NCBI RefSeq assembly: GCF_001644705.1
Contig: NZ_CP015137.1
Location: 1-32,000 of the forward strand
DNA length: 32,000 nt
Reading direction: 5' to 3'
Source: Dickeya solani IPO 2222
Lineage (GTDB): Bacteria > Pseudomonadota > Gammaproteobacteria > Enterobacterales > Enterobacteriaceae
Each line of letters starts with the position of its first letter. Position 1 is the first letter of the stretch. This document shows, in pieces, positions 1 through 16,081 of the stretch. The notes under the pieces were generated by a model. It was not told the DNA's origin. It saw only the letters and a program-made list of their open reading frames with translations, and searched no databases. The position numbers and the translations under genes are program-made.

Positions 1-144
1 CGCCAGCCGGCTGGCTGAAATGCAACGGTCAGGCGTTCGACAAAAACGCCTTCCCTAAACTGGCGCTGGCGTACCCCGGCGGCGTCCTGCCGGATCTGCG
101 TGGTGAGTTTATTCGTGGCTGGGATGATGGGCGCGGGGTGGATG
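1..144. repeat. Left arm of a long inverted repeat (partner 4566..4709); probably continues upstream of the window
   Basis: Direct comparison: 1-115 is identical to the reverse complement of 4595-4709. There are 3 mismatches out to about 144, after which the sequences diverge. Confidence 0.9.
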
Positions 145-386
145 CGGGGCGTGCTCTGAGTTCCGTGCAAACGGATGAACTCCGGTCTCACAAACACCGT
201 TTCATTAATGAATATGGCACACCGACAGAACGGATCATTGCATTTAGCGATGAGAATAATGAAAAGATTGAGGTCACGCTCTCATCGGGAGCACGTGCGC
301 ATACATACATTTTTATGGAGAACACAGGGGGAGTTGAAACCCGTCCGCGCAATATCGCCTTTAGCTACATCGTGAGGGCTGCCTGA
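1..386 (+). CDS. Phage tail fibre protein, 3' end (5' part lies upstream of the window): tail-collar domain plus variable tip, cassette 1, apparently in the expressed orientation
   Basis: Frame 3 is open from the window edge to the TGA at 384-386. The translation PAGWLKCNGQAFDKNAFPKLALAYPGGVLPDLRGEFIRGWDDGRGVD is a phage tail-collar signature. It is followed by a unique tip of about 65 aa and the terminal TRPRNIAFSYIVRAA shared with the other two cassettes. Confidence 0.85.
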   Translation, partial: PAGWLKCNGQAFDKNAFPKLALAYPGGVLPDLRGEFIRGWDDGRGVDAGRALSSVQTDELRSHKHRFINEYGTPTERIIAFSDENNEKIEVTLSSGARAHTYIFMENTGGVETRPRNIAFSYIVRAA

Positions 387-468
387 GGACTGGAGAACTT
401 ATCTGTTTTATCGATGCCCGGCGCCGGCAGCCTCTTGGATGAGTCCGGAATAAACCGGTAAACCACCG

Positions 469-495
469 CGCGGTGAGGGGACTCACCGCGTTTTT
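469..495 (+). terminator. Rho-independent terminator after tip cassette 1
   Basis: 9-bp stem cgcggtgag / ctcaccgcg with loop ggga, followed by TTTTT (491-495). Confidence 0.8.
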
Positions 496-571
496 ACGCT
501 GTGGCCGACAAGGTGCTATTCCACCGTACTCCCGTTATAGTAGACAGGTGGTTTGGATAAGCGCGAGTGAC

Positions 572-1141
572 ATGATGAATCCTGATGAAAAAACGCTGTT
601 CCTGGATGCTATGGACGATGTCAAACCGCTAAAGCCGTCCGCTACCGTCGTTCATCTTAAACCCGTTTCGGCGAAAACCGTCCTTCCCCACATTGCGGAA
701 ACAGCGCCGGATAACTTTCTTATCACCGGCTTTCTCGATCTGTTTTCATGCGAGGTCCCGCTGGAGTTCAGGCGAGAAGGTATCCAGCAAGGCGTTGTGG
801 ATAAACTGCGGCAGGGAAAGTATCCGCTGGATGGCAGCCTCAACCTGCTGCGTCAGCCGGTTGAGACCTGTCGGCAGAATCTGTTGGCGTTCATGTTGCA
901 GGCACAGCAGGATAACTTGCGTAATCTACTGATTATTCATGGCAAAGGTCGTCATGAAAAATCACACGCCAATGTCATACGCAATTACCTGTTTCGCTGG
1001 CTGCAGCAGTTTGACGCCGTGCAAGCCTTTTGTACTGCGCAACCGTTTCATGGCGGTACCGGCGCCTGTTATGTGTCGCTTAAAAAATCCGACCAGGCCC
1101 GTCAGGATAACCGCGAGAGACACGCTAAACGCAGCCGTTGA
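572..1141 (+). CDS. smrA: Smr-domain DNA endonuclease SmrA (YdaL family)
   Basis: From MMNPDEKTLFLDAMDDVKPLK the protein is collinear with E. coli SmrA, including LIIHGKGRHEKSHANVIRNY and the C-terminal ERHAKRSR. The ORF-track start at 473 overlaps the upstream terminator and is rejected. Confidence 0.85.
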   Translation: MMNPDEKTLFLDAMDDVKPLKPSATVVHLKPVSAKTVLPHIAETAPDNFLITGFLDLFSCEVPLEFRREGIQQGVVDKLRQGKYPLDGSLNLLRQPVETCRQNLLAFMLQAQQDNLRNLLIIHGKGRHEKSHANVIRNYLFRWLQQFDAVQAFCTAQPFHGGTGACYVSLKKSDQARQDNRERHAKRSR

Positions 1142-1162
1142 TCTTTTGTTCAAGCCAAAGAA

Positions 1163-1184
1163 AACGCCCGGATAACCGGGCGTT
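1163..1184 (-). terminator. Hairpin between convergent smrA and the MFS gene; functions best on the minus strand
   Basis: Stem aacgcccgg / ccgggcgtt with loop ataa. On the minus strand it is followed by TTTTCTTTGG; on the plus strand the tail is poor. Confidence 0.6.
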
Positions 1185-1205
1185 GGTGTATGGGCGTCGG
1201 CATAT

Positions 1206-2552
1206 TTAGTAACTGAGTCCTGCAACGGCGGGCCGGCTATAGCCGAATTGTCCTTTGGCAAGAATCATCAGCGACGTCAACAGTGCAGGAATAGCCAGAA
1301 TAGTAAACATGGTGGTCAGCCCCCATCCCATATTAACCACCTGCGCGCCGGCGAACGCGCTCATGATGGCGCCCATTCGGCCAACGCCATGCATCCAGCC
1401 TGAGCCGGTGGCGCGAGCTTCTGTCGGATAGTAACGGGCGGAAAGCGCATTCATGCCGGTGTTGGCGCCGTTGAGGCAAAATCCGCTGCTGAACGCGACT
1501 ACCGCCAGCATCACGAAGTAGGCGTGGGTGAGGCCAATCATCGCGGTAGCTACGCCGCCGGCGGCGTAAATCATGCCAAGCGCCAGATGCGGGTTAACGC
1601 GGTCCATCAGCCAGCCGGCAAACAGCGAACCGAACGTGCCGCCGGCCTGATACAGGGCGGTAATAATAGTGGCCTCGGTCACGCTCATGCCGGCTTCCTT
1701 GATGACGGTCGGCAGCCAACTGCCCAACAGATACACCATAAACAAACCGAAGAAATAGCCACCCCACAACATGACGCTGCCAAAACGGTAAGAGCGGGAC
1801 AGCACCAGTTGAACGGCAAATGCAGGCGTTTTTTCTGCCACGGGCATAGCGAACTGACTGTCGGCCTGACTGATGCCGGGAGCGATTTTATCCACGATGT
1901 GATGAATCTGATGCGAATCCGCCCGCTTGCTGACCAGGAACCGCACCGACTCCGGCAGCTTCATCAGCAGGAACGGCACCAGCAGCAGTGGCAAAATGCC
2001 GCCCATCAGCAACACGGAATGCCAGCCCCACTGCGGAATCATCCAGGAGGCGGCAAATCCGCCGCTGGCGGCGCCGAAGCTGAAGCCGCAGAAGACCACG
2101 GTAATGATGAAGGAGCGTTTTTTCTCCGGCGCAAACTCCGATACCAGCGTACCGACGTTCGGCATCGCCGCCCCCAGGCCTAAGCCGGTCAGAAAGCGGA
2201 AAATCACCATGTGTTGTGAGGTTTGGGAGAACGCCGTCAATAAGGTCCACAAGCCGAACAAAAATACGCTGGCGATAATGATCGTTTTACGGCCTCGCCA
2301 ATCCGCCAGCGGCCCGGAAATCATCGCCCCGACGGCCAGCCCGATCAGCGCTGCGCTGATAACCACGGCCAGTTCTGCGTTGCCGATTCCCCAGGCTGCT
2401 TTCAACGATGGCGCGATAAAGCCCATGATGGCGATGTCCATGCCATCAAGCGCAATAATACAAAAGCAAAGAAAAACAATCAGTTTCTGGTAAGCGCCAA
2501 GAGGACGCTGATTAATCAGCTGGCGTACGTCAATCGCGGTGGAACCTGTCAC
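1206..2552 (-). CDS. MFS transporter, aromatic acid:H+ symporter type (PcaK/MhpT-like)
   Basis: A 12-TM-like hydrophobic pattern with MFS motifs (GPLADWRGRK, FLTGLGLGAAMPN). Start set at the GTG at 2552, which lies 6 nt after GGAGA; the longer ORF-track start has no RBS. Confidence 0.8.
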   Translation of the reverse strand: MTGSTAIDVRQLINQRPLGAYQKLIVFLCFCIIALDGMDIAIMGFIAPSLKAAWGIGNAELAVVISAALIGLAVGAMISGPLADWRGRKTIIIASVFLFGLWTLLTAFSQTSQHMVIFRFLTGLGLGAAMPNVGTLVSEFAPEKKRSFIITVVFCGFSFGAASGGFAASWMIPQWGWHSVLLMGGILPLLLVPFLLMKLPESVRFLVSKRADSHQIHHIVDKIAPGISQADSQFAMPVAEKTPAFAVQLVLSRSYRFGSVMLWGGYFFGLFMVYLLGSWLPTVIKEAGMSVTEATIITALYQAGGTFGSLFAGWLMDRVNPHLALGMIYAAGGVATAMIGLTHAYFVMLAVVAFSSGFCLNGANTGMNALSARYYPTEARATGSGWMHGVGRMGAIMSAFAGAQVVNMGWGLTTMFTILAIPALLTSLMILAKGQFGYSRPAVAGLSY

Positions 2553-2660
2553 GCTGTTTCTCCAACAATACCGCAAAAATGTTCACAATGGCTTACACTG
2601 TAAACAATTATTTCCGATAGGGAAATATAATGGCGGGAAAAAATTTTAAGGGCCGGAGAA

Positions 2661-2693
2661 ATAAAAGCGGCGCACCGTAAATGGATGCGCCGC
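2661..2693 (-). terminator. Rho-independent terminator after the phytase-like gene
   Basis: On the minus strand: gcggcgca ... tgcgccgc stem (8 bp, 11-nt loop) followed by TTTTAT. Confidence 0.7.
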
Positions 2694-2715
2694 CGAATAA
2701 TCAATGCAGAATGGG

Positions 2716-4071
2716 CTAGTAGAGCGGCTGGGGAAGGTGGATGATCCACAACTGGCTGGCGGCGTCATCGTTTGACAGCGGTTCCAGTTCCAGACGGGTA
2801 TCGACCGCTTTTCCATCCAGCAGCAGCGCGCCATCAGCGCCTACCTGATATTTCCCGATCTTCTTTACACCCTTGACAGGGTTGACCAGTACGGACTGTA
2901 CGCCAAAATCGTTGTCGTTGGTGACCGCCAGCGTACGGGCATCGATTAGCGCTAACCCTTCTGCCTTCTCAGGCCTCCAGCCCAACTGGCGCAAATCGAC
3001 CAGTTGCTGCTTTTTCGCCAGCACGACACCGCGTTTCGCCAGCGTTTTAGCATCATTCCACTCTGCCGGCTGTTTCGCATCCAACGCGCTCAGATCGCTG
3101 GCCTGGCTCAGGTCAACACGGTAAATCAGGTTACGCATCACCTTGTTTTTATCCGCTCCTTGCTCAATCACCAGCACTTCATGGTCGTTGAGCGCCACCA
3201 TGTCGCCAATTTTGGCGTCACCGTTTTTTTGCCACTGATCCGCATCCAGCGGATAGCCGTACATGGCAGTTTTGCCCGTTGCCGGATCAAAGCTGACCAG
3301 GCGAGTCAATAACGCCTTGTTTTTGGTTTTCCCCTCGATATCCAGCGTGCTTTGCACCGCAGCCAGAATGCGGCCGTCAGGCATGCGGGTGATGCCTTCA
3401 AAGCCCCGGTTAGGCTGGCGCCATTTAAGAATATTGGGTAAACCACTGGCTACGCCTTGTTCGCCGCTTAGTGGCGTCGGGCCGACTTTCTTCAGGATTT
3501 TTCCTTGCGCATCCACCTGAATCAGGAACGGACCGTATTCATCCGATAGCCAAAATCCCCCCTGACCATCCGGCGTAATACCTTCGGTATCCAGCCCACG
3601 GCGGTCATCCGTTAATTTTTGCAATCCATCGTTGAGCGCCACTTCATTGGTGGTGCCGACTAGCGAACCGGGTAACGGCAAGCCACTGATAGGGCCGGCT
3701 TCATCATGCAATTTGCGCAGCGCCGTAGCTTGCGCGCTTTTAGCATTAACGGTAATGGTCATGATGGAGGGGGTAAAATCAGGTGCGGCAAAGATTTTCG
3801 CGTCTTTGCCCTGATATTCCGGCGCATCGGCATTCGGGCCGCGATCGGTAACGGTAACAAACGTCAGCTTGTCGCCATCCCGCCCGATAAATGACAATCC
3901 GGAACCGACCCCCATGGGAAAACCGTTGGGAAAACGCGTCTGCCACTTACCGCGGTAACTGACCCGATCATTATCAGGAAAGGTAATCTGGTACTGCTCG
4001 GTTTGAATCTCTGCCGCCTGAACCACCTGGGCCAGCAGGAGCATAGGGAGAAATGATAAACGAAGACGCAT
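2716..4071 (-). CDS. Secreted phytase-like protein ('esterase-like activity of phytase' family)
   Basis: Signal peptide MRLRLSFLPMLLLAQVVQA/AE. Beta-propeller-like repeats with DTEGI, SDEYGP and NRGFEGI motifs recalled from the phytase-like family. Family assignment is from memory, not from a search. Confidence 0.55.
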   Translation of the reverse strand: MRLRLSFLPMLLLAQVVQAAEIQTEQYQITFPDNDRVSYRGKWQTRFPNGFPMGVGSGLSFIGRDGDKLTFVTVTDRGPNADAPEYQGKDAKIFAAPDFTPSIMTITVNAKSAQATALRKLHDEAGPISGLPLPGSLVGTTNEVALNDGLQKLTDDRRGLDTEGITPDGQGGFWLSDEYGPFLIQVDAQGKILKKVGPTPLSGEQGVASGLPNILKWRQPNRGFEGITRMPDGRILAAVQSTLDIEGKTKNKALLTRLVSFDPATGKTAMYGYPLDADQWQKNGDAKIGDMVALNDHEVLVIEQGADKNKVMRNLIYRVDLSQASDLSALDAKQPAEWNDAKTLAKRGVVLAKKQQLVDLRQLGWRPEKAEGLALIDARTLAVTNDNDFGVQSVLVNPVKGVKKIGKYQVGADGALLLDGKAVDTRLELEPLSNDDAASQLWIIHLPQPLY

Positions 4072-4163
4072 GGTCGAACCCCGTAAAAGAAATCAGCGAC
4101 ATCACACTAAAACTGTAATACGACGCGTTTATGACAGTACAGTACGGCAACGATACATATTGT

Positions 4164-4190
4164 AAAAACGCGGTAAGTCCCTTCACCGCG
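4164..4190 (-). terminator. Rho-independent terminator after tip cassette 2
   Basis: On the minus strand: cgcggtgaag-gga-cttaccgcg (one bulge) followed by TTTTT. It is homologous to the terminator at 469-495. Confidence 0.7.
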
Positions 4191-4278
4191 CTGTAGCTTA
4201 CCGGTTAGATTCCGGATTTATCCGACTATGAGGCCGTCGGCGCCGTGGCGATATCGTAAGGCTCGGTTTCACCCGATA

Positions 4279-4809
4279 TCAGGCGGCCCTCACGATGTAG
4301 CTAAAGGCGATATTGCGGGGGCGGGTAGCACCATACCCAAACTGCCAACCATTTGAATCCAAATCTTGTGCACCCGACGCCTCCACATTTATAGAGGAGC
4401 GTAGCATGCCATAATCGCCTTTATTAACAACATCAAACCCCATGGATTTGTATGTATTGGCACTATCGTTGTTTGCATGTATCAACGCTCCCACATTTAC
4501 TGAAGCTAAGTTAGGATCTGAAATAGTCAGAGTTCCTTTTTGCCAACTTAGCAATTCACGGGCAACATCCACCCCACGCCCATCATCCCATCCGCGAATA
4601 AACTCACCACGCAGATCCGGCAGGACGCCGCCGGGGTACGCCAGCGCCAGTTTAGGGAAGGCGTTTTTGTCGAACGCCTGACCGTTGCATTTCAGCCAGC
4701 CGGCTGGCGGCGTCGCCTGCGGCCAGGGCAGCGGTATGCCCGCCAGGTCGGTGGTTTTCAGCACGTCGCTTAAACCCAGGTTTGCGAGAAAACCAGAGGA
4801 TAAATACAA
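4279..4809 (-). CDS. Alternative tail-fibre C-terminal cassette 2 (tail-collar domain plus different tip); promoterless and silent in this orientation
   Basis: Encodes ...GIPLPWPQATPPAGWLKCNGQAFDKNAFPKLALAYPGGVLPDLRGEFIRGWDDGRGVD, then a unique tip of about 80 aa, then TRPRNIAFSYIVRAA. An in-frame TGA lies immediately upstream, and there is only a TTG 'start' with no RBS. Confidence 0.8.
   Translation of the reverse strand: MYLSSGFLANLGLSDVLKTTDLAGIPLPWPQATPPAGWLKCNGQAFDKNAFPKLALAYPGGVLPDLRGEFIRGWDDGRGVDVARELLSWQKGTLTISDPNLASVNVGALIHANNDSANTYKSMGFDVVNKGDYGMLRSSINVEASGAQDLDSNGWQFGYGATRPRNIAFSYIVRAA
4566..4709. repeat. Right arm of the long inverted repeat (partner 1..144)
   Basis: The reverse complement of 4595-4709 is identical to 1-115. 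Confidence 0.9.
4765..4790. other. Candidate 26-bp crossover site for a Din-family (hix/gix/cix-like) invertase
   Basis: The minus strand reads TTCTCGCAAACC-TG-GGTTTAAGCGAC. This has the 12-2-12 architecture with the AAACC-NN-GGTTT core of hix/gix/cix sites. It lies at the 5' edge of cassette 2 and 44 bp upstream of the invertase ATG. Confidence 0.65.
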
Positions 4810-4833
4810 TCAGCCTTTTCAGGAGGTTAGGTT

Positions 4834-5430
4834 ATGCTTATTGGCTATGCCCGGGTATCCACCAGCGATCAAAATACCGAATTGCAAAAAAACGCGCTGG
4901 TCGGCGCAAATTGTGAACTGATTTTTGAAGATCACGCCAGCGGCAAAAACGCCAGACGGCCGGGGTTGAAACGGGCCTTGCGCAAGCTCAAACGCGGCGA
5001 CACCCTGATCGTCTGGAAACTCGATCGGCTGGGCCGCAGCGTACGGGACCTGATTACCATGGTGTCGGACCTGCAAGCGCACGGCATTCACTTTCGCAGC
5101 CTGACCGATGCGATTGATACGACAACGCCAGCCGGCCGCTTCTTTTTCCACGTGATGAGTGCGCTGGCCGAAATGGAGCGAGAACTGATCGTCGAACGAA
5201 CCCGCGCCGGACTGGCGGCCGCCCGGGCGGCGGGTCGCATCGGCGGTCGTCGGCGCATCATGACGCCAGACGCCATCGAACACGCCAAAACGCTGCTGAC
5301 CAATGGTGCAACCCGCTGGCAAATCGCCAATATTATCGGCGTGTCGGAAAAAACCATTTATAAATATTTTCCCGTCACACAAAAAACAGTTGTTAGTGAA
5401 TTATTATCATATGGAAAATATGAAGGATGA
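4834..5430 (+). CDS. Site-specific DNA invertase, serine recombinase of the Hin/Gin/Cin/Pin family
   Basis: MLIGYARVSTSDQNTELQKNAL...GDTLIVWKLDRLGRS...FRSLTDAIDTTTPAGRFFFHVMSALAEMERELIVERTRAGLAAARAAGRIGGR is collinear with Gin/Hin. There is a C-terminal HTH and a strong RBS (AGGAGG) upstream. Confidence 0.92.
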   Translation: MLIGYARVSTSDQNTELQKNALVGANCELIFEDHASGKNARRPGLKRALRKLKRGDTLIVWKLDRLGRSVRDLITMVSDLQAHGIHFRSLTDAIDTTTPAGRFFFHVMSALAEMERELIVERTRAGLAAARAAGRIGGRRRIMTPDAIEHAKTLLTNGATRWQIANIIGVSEKTIYKYFPVTQKTVVSELLSYGKYEG

Positions 5431-5447
5431 TAATTAATATTAAAATA

Positions 5448-5469
5448 ATAAAGCCATCATCGGCTTTAT
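5448..5469 (+). terminator. Weak terminator-like hairpin after the invertase gene
   Basis: Stem ataaagcc / ggctttat with a 6-nt loop; the downstream T tract is poor. Confidence 0.4.
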
Positions 5470-5572
5470 CATTCTCCATACAACACAGTGGGAATGCGTA
5501 GCCAGTGTTTTCATCAAATAATAAATGGCGCGATATAACATGCGTTAATAAATTAACATTGAGAGAAAACAC

Positions 5573-6151
5573 ATGGAAAAAAATAATTCCCCCTGTTCAC
5601 TTGACCTGATTCTGGGCAAGGAGAACCTGTATAAAAATAGTCCAATTAATATCGGCAGCATTTCGCTTGGATGCTGCAAGTGCCAGGATACCCCTGCGAC
5701 TACCCCCACCACAACCGATGGGTTGAAAGATTTGGTCGGGATTCCGCAACCCTGGCCGTTGGCAGAAGCACCGGAAGGCTGGCTGAAATGTAATGGCCAG
5801 ACATTTGATACCGCAAAATATCCGCAACTGGCAAAACTATATCCTGCCGGCACCTTGCCGGACCTGCGCGGCGAATTTATTCGTGGTTGGGATGATGGGC
5901 GTGGGGTAGATGCCAAACGAGAAATTGGTTCCGCTCAATTGGGAACACATATCACTGGTGATAACGGCTTATATCCTGCTGTACATGGTATAGGGAAAAT
6001 AGCAGAATGTTATGTAGATAGTCCCGATGCTACTCCTCGTTCATTATATTGGATTGCCGCACCGAATAATGAACTCCAAACAGGACCAACATTTTGGGGT
6101 GCCACTCGCCCACGCAATATCGCCTTCAGTTATATCGTCAAGGCAGGCTAA
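5573..6151 (+). CDS. Tail-collar domain tail-fibre tip protein, cassette 3; has its own ATG and a fixed orientation
   Basis: GIPQPWPLAEAPEGWLKCNGQTFDTAKYPQLAKLYPAGTLPDLRGEFIRGWDDGRGVD, then a unique tip, then TRPRNIAFSYIVKAG. It is AT-rich, a stop codon lies at 5549-5551 just upstream, and it abuts the chaperone gene. Confidence 0.75.
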   Translation: MEKNNSPCSLDLILGKENLYKNSPINIGSISLGCCKCQDTPATTPTTTDGLKDLVGIPQPWPLAEAPEGWLKCNGQTFDTAKYPQLAKLYPAGTLPDLRGEFIRGWDDGRGVDAKREIGSAQLGTHITGDNGLYPAVHGIGKIAECYVDSPDATPRSLYWIAAPNNELQTGPTFWGATRPRNIAFSYIVKAG

Positions 6152-6153
6152 TC

Positions 6154-6765
6154 ATGACCACACAAAATGAAACCATGATTCAGCTGAATGAACAGGGGCT
6201 GAGTATCAGCAGTGGATATATTCAGGTCTACCATATTGAACCGCAAACGCGGGAATATATCGGCAGCACCCGGGAATATTTGATGGAAGGCGTGGGTATT
6301 CCGGCACACAGTTTCATCGATACGCCGCCGCCCCTTCAAGCCGGCCAGACTGTCGTACGCAGTCAGGACAGTTTAACCTGGGAAAGCATTGCTGATTATC
6401 GCGGGCAGACCGCCTACGAGAAACAAACACGGCAACCCAACCCAATCACCCAGCCCGGCGACCTGCCCGAAACCCTGACGCTGTTGCCGCCGGCCACCGA
6501 CTACGATGTCTGGCAAAACGACGGCTGGGTGACCGATGCCAAAGCGCAGCAGACCGCACAAGCCAGCGCGGCGCAACAGCAGATGGCTGGTTATCTCGCC
6601 CAGGCGGAAAAACGCCTTGCCGTGCTGCAGTACGCGGTGGAACTGGAGATGGCGACGGAACAGGAAACCCAGGCGCTGAAGAACTGGAAAACCTATATGG
6701 TGCAGTTAAGCCGGGTGGACGTGTCGTCTGCGCCCGCTATCGACTGGCCGACCATGCCCGCCTGA
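6154..6765 (+). CDS. G: Tail fibre assembly chaperone (P2 gpG / Tfa family)
   Basis: The C-terminal LQYAVELEMATEQETQALKNWKTYMVQLSRVDVSSAPAIDWPTMP is the characteristic Tfa motif. The ATG at 6154 lies just after the cassette 3 stop (TAATCATG). Confidence 0.88.
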   Translation: MTTQNETMIQLNEQGLSISSGYIQVYHIEPQTREYIGSTREYLMEGVGIPAHSFIDTPPPLQAGQTVVRSQDSLTWESIADYRGQTAYEKQTRQPNPITQPGDLPETLTLLPPATDYDVWQNDGWVTDAKAQQTAQASAAQQQMAGYLAQAEKRLAVLQYAVELEMATEQETQALKNWKTYMVQLSRVDVSSAPAIDWPTMPA

Positions 6766-9044: not shown

Positions 9045-9196
9045 CGCTGCCGCCGAGCCTCACGGTTGACGACCTGATGGCGGATATCGCCGTGGTGTTC
9101 CACTGGCCGCCATCCACACTTTTCCCCATGAGCCTGGCAGAGTTGATTAACTGGCGTGCCAAGGCGCTACAACGAAGTGGACAAGACTATGCCTAA
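8754..9196 (+). CDS. E': gpE+E' frameshift-extended tail chaperone (-1 shift at 9017-9023)
   Basis: The -1 frame after the slip reads FFIAGLGTLTLPPSLTVDDLMADIAVVFHWPPSTLFPMSLAELINWRAKALQRSGQDYA*. The FHWP...SLxELxxW pattern is typical of the P2 E' extension. Its stop overlaps the next gene's start. Confidence 0.75.
9017..9023 (+). other. Programmed -1 frameshift slippery heptamer T_TTT_TTA
   Basis: An X_XXY_YYZ heptamer in the gpE frame (ggT TTT TTA) lies 7 codons before the E stop. The -1 frame stays open to 9196. Confidence 0.75.
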
Positions 9197-10283
9197 GCAA
9201 TCAACCACCCCGAATGACGGGTCGACGACAACAGGCGCCAGTGGACGAAGCAAAAGCGCCGGGGATAGCAGCATCTTCTCGCCGCTGGGGGATAATGTTT
9301 ATCTGAATAAAATCAGCAGCGTACTACAGGATTTTTTAAACAAAGCCGGTCAAATCACGCACAGTGGCGCGTTCAACGCCACCGGCTCGCCGAAAAAAAA
9401 CGCGACGGGCGGAAAAAAAGGCGGCAGACATTCTGCCGCGGCGCAGCTGGGAACACTGGGGAATCTCGCCAGACGATTCGACGCGCTGACCGCTATCCTG
9501 ACACCGGCCTCTTCCGCCCTGAAAACCGCGCATGACCGTTCGCCGGCGGACAATGCGGCGCTCTCCCGTAACGGCCAGTCCTCCGACGCCGGCGCAGCGC
9601 CATCGCTCATCGCTCAGGCAAGCGACGGCGTCAACAGCATCTATTTGTCCGCGACGGCGGCCATGCAGGCGCAACAGCGCATCGCCGGGCTGGTTCCTTC
9701 AGCGCGATGGGCTTCCGGCATTACCGCGCCGTCGCTGCCGGGCAACGTGGCGTCATTACTGCAAGCGCAGCAGAGCATCAATCTGCCCGCGAATCTCCTG
9801 CCACAGGTTGGCGCTGGCGCGACGTCGCAAACCGGTGCCGAAGGGCTGGACACGCTCGCCGGAACCGCACAGGAATCGTTCGTCGGCGTGGAAGAAACCA
9901 GCCTGATGCTGTCCGCATTAAGCAATGCGGACCTGGATGACGGCGACGGCGGCAACGGTGCAACCGGAGGGATTGACACGCTGCAAGCCATTTCAAGCCC
10001 GGCCCTGCAACTGCTGAGTCAATCCGCCCTGGCCGTTCAAAGCAGCGCAGAAACCCCGTCAAACCCGTTGTCTGACATGATGAACGGTCATTACCGCGCC
10101 CTCTCCCCGGCATCACAGCAAAGTTATGTTGACCAGCGCGTGGTGAATAACATCACCATCAACGTGCCGGAGAACAGCAACCTCGACACGATTAAACAAT
10201 ACATTGAAGAGGCCCTGAGAAAATACACCCCGAATAGCAGCGCGTACTCCTATAACTCCATGACCTCTAATCTCATTTCATGA
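9189..10283 (+). CDS. Protein in the tape-measure (gpT) position; unusually short (364 aa) and low-complexity
   Basis: Assigned by position only, between E' and U. The ATG at 9189 overlaps the E' stop. The protein is rich in Ala, Ser, Gly and Gln, and I saw no recognisable P2 gpT N-terminal similarity. Confidence 0.5.
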   Translation: MPKQSTTPNDGSTTTGASGRSKSAGDSSIFSPLGDNVYLNKISSVLQDFLNKAGQITHSGAFNATGSPKKNATGGKKGGRHSAAAQLGTLGNLARRFDALTAILTPASSALKTAHDRSPADNAALSRNGQSSDAGAAPSLIAQASDGVNSIYLSATAAMQAQQRIAGLVPSARWASGITAPSLPGNVASLLQAQQSINLPANLLPQVGAGATSQTGAEGLDTLAGTAQESFVGVEETSLMLSALSNADLDDGDGGNGATGGIDTLQAISSPALQLLSQSALAVQSSAETPSNPLSDMMNGHYRALSPASQQSYVDQRVVNNITINVPENSNLDTIKQYIEEALRKYTPNSSAYSYNSMTSNLIS

Positions 10284-12642: not shown

Positions 12643-13953
12643 ATGATGGAAACCATCCAGGCTTACCGCGCCAGTCTGTTGCACTTTGTCGCCGACCCGC
12701 TGCATGACCCGCAGGCCACTCGCTTTATCGAAGACGGCCTGTTGCGGGTGCGCGATGGGCGTATTCAGGATGCCGTGCCGTATGACAGCCTCACTGAGGC
12801 CGAACGCCAGTCCATGACGGTGATCGACTATCGCGGCCGGCTGCTGATGCCGGGGTTTATCGACACCCATATCCATTTTCCGCAGACGGAAATGATCGCC
12901 AGTTACGGCGAGCAGTTGCTGTCCTGGCTCAATACTTACACCTTTCCCACCGAGCGTAAGTTCGCCGACGAGGATTACGCCCGGGAGCGGGCCGCGTTTT
13001 TCATTCAGGAACTGCTGCGGCACGGCACCACCAGCGCACTGGTGTTCGCCACCGTGCACCCGCAGTCGGTTGACGCGCTGTTCAGCGCCGCCGAAGCCAA
13101 AAACATGTGCCTCATCGCCGGCAAAGTGATGATGGACCGCCATGCGCCGGACTATCTGTGCGACACCGCGCAGCAAAGCTATGACGAGAGTAAAGCGCTG
13201 ATTGAAAAATGGCACCGGCGCGGGCGGTTGCGCTACGCGGTCACGCCGCGTTTTGCGCCCACCTCCACCCCGGCGCAGCTGGCGCTGGCGGGGCGACTGT
13301 TGCGGGAATACCCGGATGTGTATCTGCATACCCATCTGAGTGAAAACCCGGACGAAATCGCCTGGGTCAAATCGCTGTTTCCCGAACATCAACATTACCT
13401 TGATGTTTACCACCACCACGGTCTGACCGGACGCCGTTCGGTGTTTGCCCATGCCATCCATCTGCAGCCTGATGAAGTCCGCACGCTGGCGCAAAGCCAG
13501 TCCGCCGTGGCGTTTTGCCCCTGCTCCAATCTGTTTCTGGGCAGCGGCCTGTTTCGGCTGCATCCGCTAAAGGCCGCGGGGATTCGCATCGGAATCGGCA
13601 CCGACGTCGGCGCCGGCACCAGCCTGTCGCTGCTGCAAACCCTCAGCGACGGCTACAAAGTGCAGCAGTTGCAAGGAGAAAAACTCTCGGCACGCGAAGG
13701 GTTGTATCAGGCCACGCTGGGCAGCGCCGCCGCACTGTCGCTGGATGACCGGCTGGGTAACTTTCTGCCGGGCAAAGAAGCCGATTTCGTGGTGCTGGAC
13801 TGGGCCGCCACCCCACTGCAACAGTTGCGCCAGCAACAATCCACCTCGCTGGACGATCGGCTGTTCGCTCTGATGATGCAAGGTGACGACCGAAACATCA
13901 GCGCCACTTATGTGCATGGCGAATGCGTCTATACTCGTCATACGTCAAGTTGA
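12643..13953 (+). CDS. guaD: Guanine deaminase
   Basis: Collinear with E. coli GuaD (PGFIDTHIHFPQTEMIASYGEQLLSWLN, HTHLSENPDEIAWV, GTDVGAGTS). Start chosen at the ATG 8 nt after AGGGAG. Confidence 0.9.
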   Translation: MMETIQAYRASLLHFVADPLHDPQATRFIEDGLLRVRDGRIQDAVPYDSLTEAERQSMTVIDYRGRLLMPGFIDTHIHFPQTEMIASYGEQLLSWLNTYTFPTERKFADEDYARERAAFFIQELLRHGTTSALVFATVHPQSVDALFSAAEAKNMCLIAGKVMMDRHAPDYLCDTAQQSYDESKALIEKWHRRGRLRYAVTPRFAPTSTPAQLALAGRLLREYPDVYLHTHLSENPDEIAWVKSLFPEHQHYLDVYHHHGLTGRRSVFAHAIHLQPDEVRTLAQSQSAVAFCPCSNLFLGSGLFRLHPLKAAGIRIGIGTDVGAGTSLSLLQTLSDGYKVQQLQGEKLSAREGLYQATLGSAAALSLDDRLGNFLPGKEADFVVLDWAATPLQQLRQQQSTSLDDRLFALMMQGDDRNISATYVHGECVYTRHTSS

Positions 13954-14269
13954 CGATGCGGTGGCTTTATTTTTCTCGTCTATCGCCGCGAACAGCCGAC
14001 GATGATTCCGCCACAGCCCCTACGCCGCTGCGGCGGAATGGTACTCAGATCAGGCATGGCGGAGATAAAACGCACCGGCGTTTTCATCAGAAAGTGATCC
14101 ATTGCACATTTCACCCAAAAAAATCGCGCCGTGCTGTGCCGCTTACCGATAACTGTTCTTGAATAATATCGGACAAGCACTCAGGCCAACGGCGGGATGG
14201 CGACATCAGCTGAGCTCTGCCCCTTGCGGAGCTTGCAGCAATCATCACCAGGCACCATAAGGTTTCGTC

Positions 14270-16081
14270 ATGACTTCCCCATGCCATCGTTGTAGCGAAG
14301 AACAGCAAGACATCCTCGCGCGCATGCTGAATATCTTTGACACGCAGCCCGCCGAAGAGCTCCCTCGTCTGACGCGGATCACCCGCACCTTTTTTCAGGT
14401 AAAGAGCGTGGTGATTTCACTGGTGAACAATGAACGACAATGGTTTTTGTCTAAAGCCAACTTTCCCCTTCAGGAACCGTCCATCGAGTTTTCCTTCTGC
14501 GTGCATACGGTGAGCGCCAACGCGCCGCTGATCATCCCCGATACCCTGCTGGACGAGCGCTTCGCAACAAACCCGATGGTCACCGGCGATGATCCGATTC
14601 GTTTTCACGCCGGTTACCCGCTGCGTTCTTCGCTCGGCACGCCGCTCGGCGCGTTGTGCCTGTATCACGATCAGCCGCGCGCCTTCAGCGATGAAGACAT
14701 GCAGCAACTCAGCGACCTGGCATTTATCGTACAAACCGTGCTGCATAAAGTAGAGATGCAGGCGCGCGAAGCGATCGCCCGGGAAAAGCTGTATCAGTCG
14801 GATTACATCAGTCAGCAGATTTTTTCCCGCGCCGCCATCGGCCTGGCTCTGATAGCCCCAAACAAACGGCCGCTAAAATTCAATCACGCCTTCTGCGACA
14901 TGCTCGGCTACGACGAGGAAACGCTACTGACGCTACCGGTGGACAAAGTGGTGCACCCGGAAGACCTGCCCAGACTGATCAGCGATCACGACCTGCTGAT
15001 GGACAGTAATTTGCTGGAGAGCACCCTGCAGCGGCGCTATATCCGCGCCGACGGCAGCGAATTGTGGGCGCAGGTTTCCATTTCGGTGCTCTACAATCCG
15101 GATGGCGGTAAATTCGGCCTGTTGCTGGCGCTGACCGACCTCAGCGACCAAAAAGCGTCCGAGCAGGCATTGCGCGGCCTGAGTCAGGAACTGGAGCACC
15201 GGGTGGAACAACGCACCGCCGAGCTGCGCCAGAGCCACCAGTTTATTCAGGACATCACCGATCATATTCCGGCGATGATCTCCTGCATCAATCCGAACAA
15301 CGTACTGGTTTTCGCCAACCGCCACCTGCGGAAATTAATAGGCCACGAACATACCCTGTACCAGCGCGATATCCACGAGATTCTTCGCCCACAGGAGCTG
15401 GCGCTGTTCCTGCCGCGTCTGGAGGAGTCACGCCAGAAACGGCACTCCGCGTCGTTTGAACACGTGCTGGATATGCCCGACGGTCAGCTCATCACCTTTC
15501 ATACCGAACTGGTGCCTGCCGACTCGCCGGAGCTGGGCACCTATATTCTTTCTACCGATATCACCCACCTTACGGTATTGCGCGACCAGTTGACGTTCGA
15601 AGCCAATCACGATCATCTGACCGGTCTGCCTAACCGGCGTGCGGTCATCAGCTACCTGAACCGGCTGGCGGGGAAAAAACGGCGCGGCGCGCTGGCGCTG
15701 CTGTTTTTTGATATCAACAACTTCAAACACTATAACGACCGGTTCGGGCACGACTTTGGCGATCGGGTCATCAAAACCTTCGCCCGCTTGCTACGCCAGA
15801 ATACCCGCTCCTACGATTTCATCGGCCGTTTGTCGGGCGACGAATTCCTGATGGTAATTAATGAGCAGCGCAATCTGGCCAGTGAAATCCGCGCCATTAC
15901 CCAAAAACTGAAAGCGAAGATCGAAAAACCGATCACCATTCGCCAGCAGACCATCACGCTATCCGCCAGCGTGGGACGCGCGATTTTGCCTCAGGGCGCG
16001 CCGCTTAACGCCAACGAGCTGATCCGCCAGGCGGACACCGCCATGTACCAGGCCAAACGTCGCGCTATCTCCCCATCCTGA
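14270..16081 (+). CDS. GAF-PAS-PAS-GGDEF diguanylate cyclase (active-site variant SGDEF, I-site RSYD present)
   Basis: N-terminal GAF-like block (ISLVNNERQWFLSK...GALCLYHDQPRAF), then PAS-like segments. The C-terminal GGDEF domain contains HDHLTGLPNRR ... RSYDFIGRLSGDEF. Confidence 0.85.
   Translation: MTSPCHRCSEEQQDILARMLNIFDTQPAEELPRLTRITRTFFQVKSVVISLVNNERQWFLSKANFPLQEPSIEFSFCVHTVSANAPLIIPDTLLDERFATNPMVTGDDPIRFHAGYPLRSSLGTPLGALCLYHDQPRAFSDEDMQQLSDLAFIVQTVLHKVEMQAREAIAREKLYQSDYISQQIFSRAAIGLALIAPNKRPLKFNHAFCDMLGYDEETLLTLPVDKVVHPEDLPRLISDHDLLMDSNLLESTLQRRYIRADGSELWAQVSISVLYNPDGGKFGLLLALTDLSDQKASEQALRGLSQELEHRVEQRTAELRQSHQFIQDITDHIPAMISCINPNNVLVFANRHLRKLIGHEHTLYQRDIHEILRPQELALFLPRLEESRQKRHSASFEHVLDMPDGQLITFHTELVPADSPELGTYILSTDITHLTVLRDQLTFEANHDHLTGLPNRRAVISYLNRLAGKKRRGALALLFFDINNFKHYNDRFGHDFGDRVIKTFARLLRQNTRSYDFIGRLSGDEFLMVINEQRNLASEIRAITQKLKAKIEKPITIRQQTITLSASVGRAILPQGAPLNANELIRQADTAMYQAKRRAISPS

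Follow-up and report, generated by a model that had tools for sequence, protein, structure and literature searches.

At the start of a 32,000-nucleotide stretch from the genome of the potato soft-rot bacterium Dickeya solani IPO 2222 (contig NZ_CP015137.1, positions 1 to 32,000 of the forward strand; this whole stretch is referred to here as the window) lies an invertible DNA segment that is a real and almost certainly functional tail-fibre tip switch of the Gin/Cin type, housed in a known tailocin. We put the probability at roughly 85% that it is a host-range switch like the G segment of phage Mu or the C segment of phage P1, in which a Gin/Cin-type invertase flips the segment and joins a constant fibre shaft to either tip A or tip B. 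Under this mechanism, the invertase encoded at 4834-5430 would recombine two inverted, identical 26-bp sites, one within tail-fibre gene H and the other 5′ of the invertase gene, and exchange at the central TG would flip the 4.85-kb segment. A constant shaft of ~232 aa would be joined in frame to tip A (386 aa, the state of the window) or to tip B (401 aa). As it is a receptor-facing stretch of 65 aa or 80 aa that differs, the flip should change which bacteria the tailocin kills. Each cassette would end in its own terminator, with cargo genes sitting between the two terminators. Switches of this kind are known, and the sole structural oddity of the present one is the cargo of host genes inside the invertible segment. 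An earlier reading of the window (the original prediction) had proposed an invertase-driven fibre tip switch as in Mu, P1 and carotovoricin. This core is supported by recovery of the partner site, by the occurrence of both orientations, by intact fibres and by the full-length alignment of the invertase with Gin.

The window matches D. solani genome CP017453.1 with 0 mismatches across 14,071 bp, and its position 1 falls within tail-fibre gene H of a P2-like tail cluster. This cluster is the dickeyocin P2D1 tailocin, a P2-derived and headless particle whose locus has already been named. It carries P2-like tail genes (X, R, V, W, J, I, H, the assembly gene, FI, FII, E, a short T, U, D and ogr) without head genes, and 3′ of the assembly gene follow the sheath, the tube and the remaining P2-type tail operon up to gpD. 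Dickeyocin P2D1 was described in D. dadantii 3937, and highly similar regions were reported in D. solani (PMC10719855; bioRxiv 10.1101/2024.09.28.615580). Five genes separate RS12070 and RS12100 in P2D1 of D. dadantii 3937, the same as in the window locus.

Fibre tips and crossover sites

Gene H starts 775 bp upstream of the window (13686-14846 of the CP017453.1 locus, L003) and encodes 386 aa with Phage_tail_fib N-terminal and Collar domains. Its 3′ end, with tip cassette A, occupies 1-386 on the plus strand and is the tip expressed in the window orientation. Silent tip cassette B lies opposed at 4279-4764 on the minus strand, and D. solani assembly JABAOO010000002.1 (L001) has it joined in frame to the H shaft, with gene calls there giving an H of 401 aa that ends in tip B. 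That both are tail-fibre C-terminal cassettes had been predicted and is upheld by matches to Collar (E = 7e-10 and 4e-13) and to PHROG tail-fibre families (down to E = 1e-52 to 1e-55). The tips comprise 74 shared residues, then a variable 65 aa or 80 aa, then a common 15-aa C-terminus, and the predicted exchange of a ~65-aa for a ~80-aa tip on a constant shaft agrees with the intact, in-frame H proteins of 386 aa and 401 aa that were called. The locus has the layout of a phage-type fibre switch such as Mu G, P1 C, e14 P or carotovoricin: the constant N-terminus lies outside the segment, the opposed C-terminal parts lie inside it, and the frame is kept in both states. Cassette B had also been described as lacking both a start codon and a ribosome-binding site. 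A 176-aa TTG-initiated open reading frame (ORF) was nevertheless called there, its first codons deriving from the invertase promoter region, but we found no convincing ribosome-binding site, and only the second half of that description stands.

The region 3′ of each cassette is homologous over ~110 nt and ends in a hairpin with a U-run. For cassette A this 3′ untranslated region spans 387-497 on the plus strand, with a terminator-like hairpin at 468-490 followed by TTTTT (predicted fold -21.5 kcal/mol, z = -3.5); for cassette B it spans 4162-4278 on the minus strand, aligns with the 3′ flank of cassette A and also ends in a terminator-like hairpin (fold -16 kcal/mol). Across four Dickeya species at least five unrelated variable stretches occupy the A and B slots, and one tip type can fill either slot.

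Next to the Gin-like invertase gene the original prediction had placed a 26-bp site with an AAACC-NN-GGTTT core, and this we confirm. In a scan of the window the 26-mer TTCTCGCAAACC-TG-GGTTTAAGCGAC is present once, at 4765-4790 on the minus strand (central TG at 4777-4778), and it ends 43 nt 5′ of the invertase ATG at 4834. Its partner, expected about 56-81 bp upstream of position 1, was recovered exactly there: positions 14127-14152 of L003, equivalent to window -80..-55, carry the site inverted and identical at 26/26 positions. As befits a DNA invertase, the pair consists of two inverted 26-bp sites with 12-bp half-sites and the same non-palindromic core TG. They bound a segment of 4,871 bp, with 4,845 bp between the central TG dinucleotides. 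The H-side copy encodes F-L-A-N-L-G-L-S-D, and the exchange point falls within a Leu codon. The nearest candidate for a third crossover site in the window, the vicinity of a further fibre cassette (C, see below) included, has 9 mismatches in 26. A multi-site shufflon in the window genome was considered and rejected, no further site being closer than 9/26 mismatches.

The sites are conserved well beyond their surroundings. Seven H-side copies have 0/26 variable columns and six invertase-side copies have 1/26, compared with 14-37 variable columns in the 45-nt flanks of the same copies. D. solani, D. chrysanthemi, D. parazeae, D. fangzhongdai and contigs from IMG/VR all carry the same 26-bp site, whereas the neighbouring codons vary. 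Homology between the two junctions starts at the outer edge of the 26-bp site; beyond it only 'tt' is common, and the outer half-site is kept within otherwise unrelated flanks. Every Dickeya locus examined retains an intact, conserved invertase ORF. Judged by these comparisons, both the sites and the invertase appear to be under evident constraint.

Natural orientations and the agent of inversion

Both orientations of the segment occur in nature. When L001 was compared with L003, the 4,871-bp segment was identical with 0 mismatches, and flanks of 2,087 bp and 7,204 bp were exchanged and reverse-complemented, again with 0 mismatches. That two D. solani assemblies show 0 differences across some 14 kb apart from the flip argues for a very recent event. 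A further 13-16 assemblies were grouped with L001 by common neighbouring genes, and in CP024710.1 (L002) both junctions agree with the window orientation. Among other species, D. chrysanthemi Ech1591 is flipped, and D. parazeae Ech586 and D. fangzhongdai are in the window state. The question of orientation raised by the original prediction is thereby answered from otherwise identical D. solani assemblies and across Dickeya species.

The published record offers a hint in favour of the switch: the P2D1 authors note that the orientation of the transporter and phytase genes varies among strains (PMC10719855; bioRxiv 10.1101/2024.09.28.615580). Those two papers describe neither the switch nor its sites nor the alternative tips, and the word stems inversion, invert and recombinase are absent from both. 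We found no explicit description of a P2D1 switch in the searchable literature, a search outside which subscription-journal papers fall. A genomics paper on D. solani annotates smrA, pcaK and hin in a prophage and mentions small inversions between strains.

The likely agent of inversion is encoded at the edge of the segment. The gene at 4834-5430 on the plus strand specifies a Gin/Cin/Hin-type serine DNA invertase of 198 aa, with Resolvase (PF00239, E = 1e-48) and HTH_7 (PF02796) domains and a match to the PHROG DNA invertase family (E = 1.5e-86). It is 65.9% identical to P1 Cin and 69.6% identical to the invertase of a P2-like Yersinia phage (a range of 63-68% was given for Gin, Cin and the P2-like invertase), and matches Gin structures with E = 3e-69, colinear across residues 1-183. 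The catalytic serine (Ser9 in Gin, Ser10 in Hin) is present as Ser9 within MLIGYARVSTSDQ. Basic residues in helix B that are unique to invertases (K47, K/R48 and K/R51 in Hin; PMC3798978) are represented by K46, R47 and R50 in Gin numbering. That this particular invertase flips the segment we infer at the level of populations, from both orientations in otherwise identical genomes.

The region equivalent to the annotated recombinational enhancer of P1 cin, placed by alignment with P1, lies at 4852-4923 on the plus strand (nt 19-90 of the gene). Within it, the 15-mer GCGCAAATTGTGAAC at 4904-4918 (gene nt 71-85) fits 7/7 specified positions of a Fis consensus and sits at the same position as in cin. 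Fis may assist the reaction. A candidate sigma-70-like promoter for the invertase, TTGCGA-17-TACAAT, spans 4782-4810 on the plus strand and scored 9/12 in a consensus scan. Its -35-like hexamer lies inside the outer half-site of the crossover site, and across species the -10 hexamer is conserved, as is the ribosome-binding site. From this overlap of promoter and site alone, the invertase might regulate its own expression.

Several points weigh against this account of the switch. The Fis-contact residues in helix 1 of the DNA-binding domain are Q151, R154 and L155 in Hin (PMC3798978), and the corresponding residues here are H150, T153 and L154, so that 2/3 are changed and the leucine alone is kept; other Dickeya invertases have Q or H, then T, then L. 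Moreover, a second Fis-like site sought 48 bp away in the enhancer-equivalent region yielded nothing convincing. Because two contact residues are changed and the second site was not found, dependence of the inversion on Fis appears uncertain. Next, the exchange point of the natural flip is unmappable since the D. solani arms are identical for 196 bp, and RecA-dependent recombination, which may account for any single event, would yield the same product. Lastly, some public assemblies are visibly odd here, with palindromic or tandem duplications, and individual orientations deserve caution.

The arms that raise the question of RecA are extensive. The part of the left arm within the window (1-153) is 95% complementary to 4557-4709, and the full arm begins at the partner site. 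Perfect identity holds for 196 bp counted from the outer site edge, which corresponds to window 1-116 and matches the predicted inverted repeat of 115 bp reaching the window edge. Two shorter inverted matches lie deeper in the segment: 339-397 with 4268-4326, which are the common C-terminal codons, and 453-497 with 4162-4206, the common 3′ untranslated region with its terminator hairpin. Within one genome the arms inside the segment are 95-98% identical, compared with 83-92% between species regardless of slot, which points to concerted evolution and shows that gene conversion between the arms also occurs.

Homologous recombination by RecA between these ~200-bp identical arms, with the invertase inactive or irrelevant, is quite an unlikely cause of the flips. 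An exchange anywhere within the 196 identical bp would fit the natural flip, homologous exchange does take place between arms that evolve in concert, and the loss of two Fis-contact residues points the same way. However, such a process would leave the invariance of the 26-bp site across species, outer half-site included, at odds with the variation of the adjacent coding sequence, and it sits poorly with an invertase ORF that has stayed intact and conserved. One IMG/VR contig, IMGVR_UViG_2847235940_000004 (L053), also weighs against it: its sequences diverge immediately past the 26 bp, leaving no homologous arms, yet both sites are kept at 25-26/26. The segment of L053 (2532-6449) is only 3.9 kb and lacks the phytase-like gene, and its H-fused tip appears degenerate or frameshifted.

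We observed three kinds of irregular assembly at this locus. In D. solani CP051458.1 (L043, 212-9957) the whole 4,871-bp segment is present twice as a perfect palindrome centred at 5057-5112, with copies that differ by one base. The layout is H-[A..B']-site-AATT-site-[B..A']-invertase, with the junction sequence GCGAGAAAATTTTCTCGC, and the palindromic arrangement recurs in five assemblies grouped with L043. It could be a real inverted duplication with four sites, or an artefact of assembling a culture of mixed orientation. If real, a four-site arrangement of this sort would possibly give a multi-state switch. In CP024711.1 (L041/L042) and CP051459.1 (L044/L045) part of the cluster is duplicated in tandem, from the invertase through to ogr and an amidohydrolase gene that is truncated. 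Several genes are fragmented or truncated in these assemblies, and the second cargo copy in CP024711.1 is oppositely oriented. A similar duplication, of smrA, pcaK and hin, is reported for strain IFB0223 (PMC6127512). Palindromic and tandem duplications alike could stem from mixed cultures or from real rearrangements. Finally, draft assemblies break exactly at the 26-bp site (IMGVR_UViG_2706794495_000003, L048/L050; L046, 1-62): in one draft scaffold the site is duplicated and flanks poly-A/T filler, and another contig begins 62 bp upstream of the invertase. Because short-read contigs are broken at the repeat, they cannot reveal mixed orientations within a sample.

Given such irregularities, the locus might be read as a frozen relic in which orientation differences are old fixed events or assembly errors and nothing switches at present. 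Several long-read assemblies are clearly problematic at the locus, and L046, L048 and L050 end at the very site in question. We nevertheless hold this to be very unlikely: two D. solani assemblies differ by the flip and by nothing else over about 14 kb, finished genomes of different species show both orientations, and sites and invertase are evidently constrained.

Cargo genes and the wider tail cluster

Three cellular genes between the cassettes account for the large size of the segment. The first (575-1141, plus strand) encodes a DNA endonuclease SmrA of 188 aa, with the Pfam Smr domain and a score of 232.7 bits for the NCBIfam equivalog endonuc_SmrA (cutoff 180). The second (1206-2552, minus strand) encodes a 448-aa PcaK-like MFS transporter of the aromatic acid/H+ symporter type (Pfam MFS_1 and Sugar_tr), whose best NCBIfam matches, PcaK and TIGR00895, are both under cutoff. 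The third (2716-4071, minus strand) encodes a phytase-like (esterase-like) family protein of 451 aa (Pfam Phytase-like, E = 2.9e-46). All three are found within the invertible segment in the four Dickeya species examined. In Musicola paradisiaca (L027/L028, 9633-14557) gpI is followed directly by the same three genes and these by a 183-aa homologue of cassette C, which makes the cargo an old part of the tail cluster. H, cassettes A and B, the sites and the invertase were not found in the stretch of the Musicola cluster that was read, and blastn and tblastn recovered no remnants of H, the cassettes or the invertase. Musicola is reported to make tailocins.

Homologues of the phytase-like protein, at 58-64% identity, occur across the Enterobacterales. 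In Pectobacterium and Brenneria the gene has an unrelated chromosomal context, without smrA or the transporter, and these unrelated contexts do not support the cargo being an ancestral chromosomal block between two prophages. In Brenneria rubrifaciens (L037, 3306-9362) the homologue adjoins genes for a CI-type repressor, an antiterminator, a holin and a levansucrase-type enzyme (Pfam Glyco_hydro_68), which is another phage-flavoured neighbourhood for the gene family. A scan of the phytase-like protein against a genome contig collection gave a best match in Wohlfahrtiimonas, at 54%, and no Dickeya, Musicola or other Enterobacterales locus, from a collection that seems to lack or mask such genomes.

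The cargo genes are most likely passengers that flip along with the segment. A switch that mainly served the cargo, by phase-variable control of host genes placed downstream of an induced fibre gene, would account for some of the layout: in the window orientation smrA reads the same way as H-A, from a start 189 bp past the H-A stop codon, the phytase-like and MFS genes come to lie there when the segment is flipped, and the three genes persist inside the segment in four Dickeya species and in the same tail cluster in Musicola. However, a terminator hairpin follows each cassette, Musicola keeps the three genes in place without sites or invertase, and one relative has lost the phytase-like gene, and we take this to be an extremely unlikely purpose for the switch. 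It is also unlikely that fibre specificity and host-gene expression are phase-varied together, with each flip setting either smrA or the phytase-like and transporter genes downstream of an SOS-induced fibre gene and with the cargo kept since before the split of Dickeya and Musicola.

Downstream of the invertase lies a static third cassette, C (5573-6151, plus strand), which encodes 192 aa with Collar and PHROG matches. It starts at an ATG of its own, has an N-terminal extension of about 50 aa that is AT-rich and unrelated to H, and has no crossover site nearby. Its 90%-identity cluster covers four Dickeya species, and the Musicola stretch read contains a single fibre-like gene, to which it is 68% identical. 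Mass spectrometry of P2D1 particles detected the fibre RS12070 and a 'side tail fiber' RS12100 (PMC10719855). The cassette C protein is probably this RS12100, an equivalence that we draw from gene order. At 192 aa, the cassette C protein is without the fibre N-terminal domain. The tail-fibre assembly (chaperone) gene follows at 6154-6765 on the plus strand (203 aa; Pfam Caudo_TAP, PHROG tail fibre assembly). It is the sole assembly gene of the locus, and between the sites there is no Caudo_TAP gene, let alone a pair of internal assembly genes. Cassettes A, B and C all end ..RPRNIAFSYIV(R/K)A.., and because they share this C-terminus one external chaperone probably suffices for all three.

Other features of the cluster are given here as observations in their own right. 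A sharp AT-rich island at window 5250-5700 (36-39% GC compared with about 55% around it) spans the 3′ end of the invertase gene, which encodes a species-specific C-terminal tail, together with a hairpin at 5442-5475 and the beginning of cassette C. The gene at the tape-measure position (9156-10283) encodes only about 364-375 aa, whereas the Musicola counterpart has 737 aa and that of the P2-like Yersinia phage about 810 aa, in agreement with the published remark that P2D1 is without a normal tape-measure protein. Upstream of the window (L003, 14847-15204) a 358-bp non-coding spacer separates gpI and H, with a terminator-like hairpin and T-run directly after gpI. In the P2-like Yersinia phage the two genes overlap at the end of I, and a separate promoter may therefore serve H in Dickeya.

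Current work on P2D1 tailocins treats them as determinants of competition between soft-rot pathogens and as potential agents of biocontrol. If the tip flips, one strain makes two kinds of particle, and the killing spectrum measured for a culture would reflect its mix of orientations; near-clonal D. solani strains could then differ through orientation alone. The locus supplies the primers and sites for constructing orientation-locked strains. Moreover, it is a clear natural case of cellular genes trapped in a phage-type invertible segment, and of one external chaperone for several tips, and it leaves the understanding of how such switches work unchanged.

Comparison with known switches

The C segment of phage P1 (AF234172), flipped by Cin, shares most of the architecture seen here. 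Its 26-bp sites also have the AAACC-NN-GGTTT core, and the Dickeya site matches cixL at 18/26 positions and cixR at 19/26; the inner half-site is GGTTTAAGAGAA in P1 and GGTTTAAGCGAC in Dickeya. In both systems the crossover lies inside the fibre ORF at a ..LGL.. motif. P1 has an annotated enhancer near the 5′ end of cin, and a Fis-like 15-mer occurs at matching positions in the two invertase genes. The original prediction had judged the arms and the ~4.85-kb segment of Dickeya to be unusually long. This does not hold against P1, whose internal inverted arms are likewise long (636 nt at 98%) and whose annotated segment, at 4,256 bp, is similar in size. P1 differs in that its segment holds two tips and two assembly genes (U and U') and no cellular genes, that cixL lies at the 3′ end of cin and not upstream of the invertase gene, that the core dinucleotide is TT and not TG, and that P1 is a complete phage and not a tailocin.

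Mu follows the same logic of a constant and a variable fibre part, and gin adjoins its invertible segment. At about 3 kb, the G segment includes assembly genes and is not known to hold host genes. Mu Gin is colinear with the Dickeya invertase over residues 1-183 and shares Ser9, K46, R47 and a basic residue at 50. It differs at the Fis contacts, where Q150 and R153 of Gin face H150 and T153 in Dickeya.

Among tailocins a precedent is carotovoricin Er of Pectobacterium, a sister soft-rot genus, whose killing range changes when an invertase flips its fibre locus (Nguyen et al. 2001, cited by PMC13195805). The citing paper describes carotovoricin tips as exchanged between species by recombination. 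The five or more tip types of Dickeya, shuffled between slots, resemble this. However, carotovoricin is of other phage ancestry: it has no significant nucleotide similarity to P2D1, and the sheath proteins are 34% identical (PMC10719855). Host-gene cargo is not reported for it in the passages of PMC13195805 consulted on carotovoricin.

The canonical P2-like form of the module is seen in Yersinia phage vB_YenM_201.16 (OM046628), the P2-like phage referred to above, in which V-W-J-I-H-[invertible tips]-invertase-sheath-tube follow one another as in Dickeya. Its H-side site, CTCTCGCAAACC-TT-GGTTTAGGCGAC, matches the Dickeya site at 23/26 positions and falls in the same LANLGL codons. The phage differs in the segment itself, which is about 1.4 kb and consists of [tip, assembly gene, assembly gene', tip'] only. 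Dickeya has no internal assembly genes and instead holds three cellular genes between terminated cassettes, with an additional static cassette and an assembly gene 3′ of the invertase. By this comparison of gene content, the Dickeya locus reads as a P2-like phage module minus its internal assembly genes, with host genes in their place.

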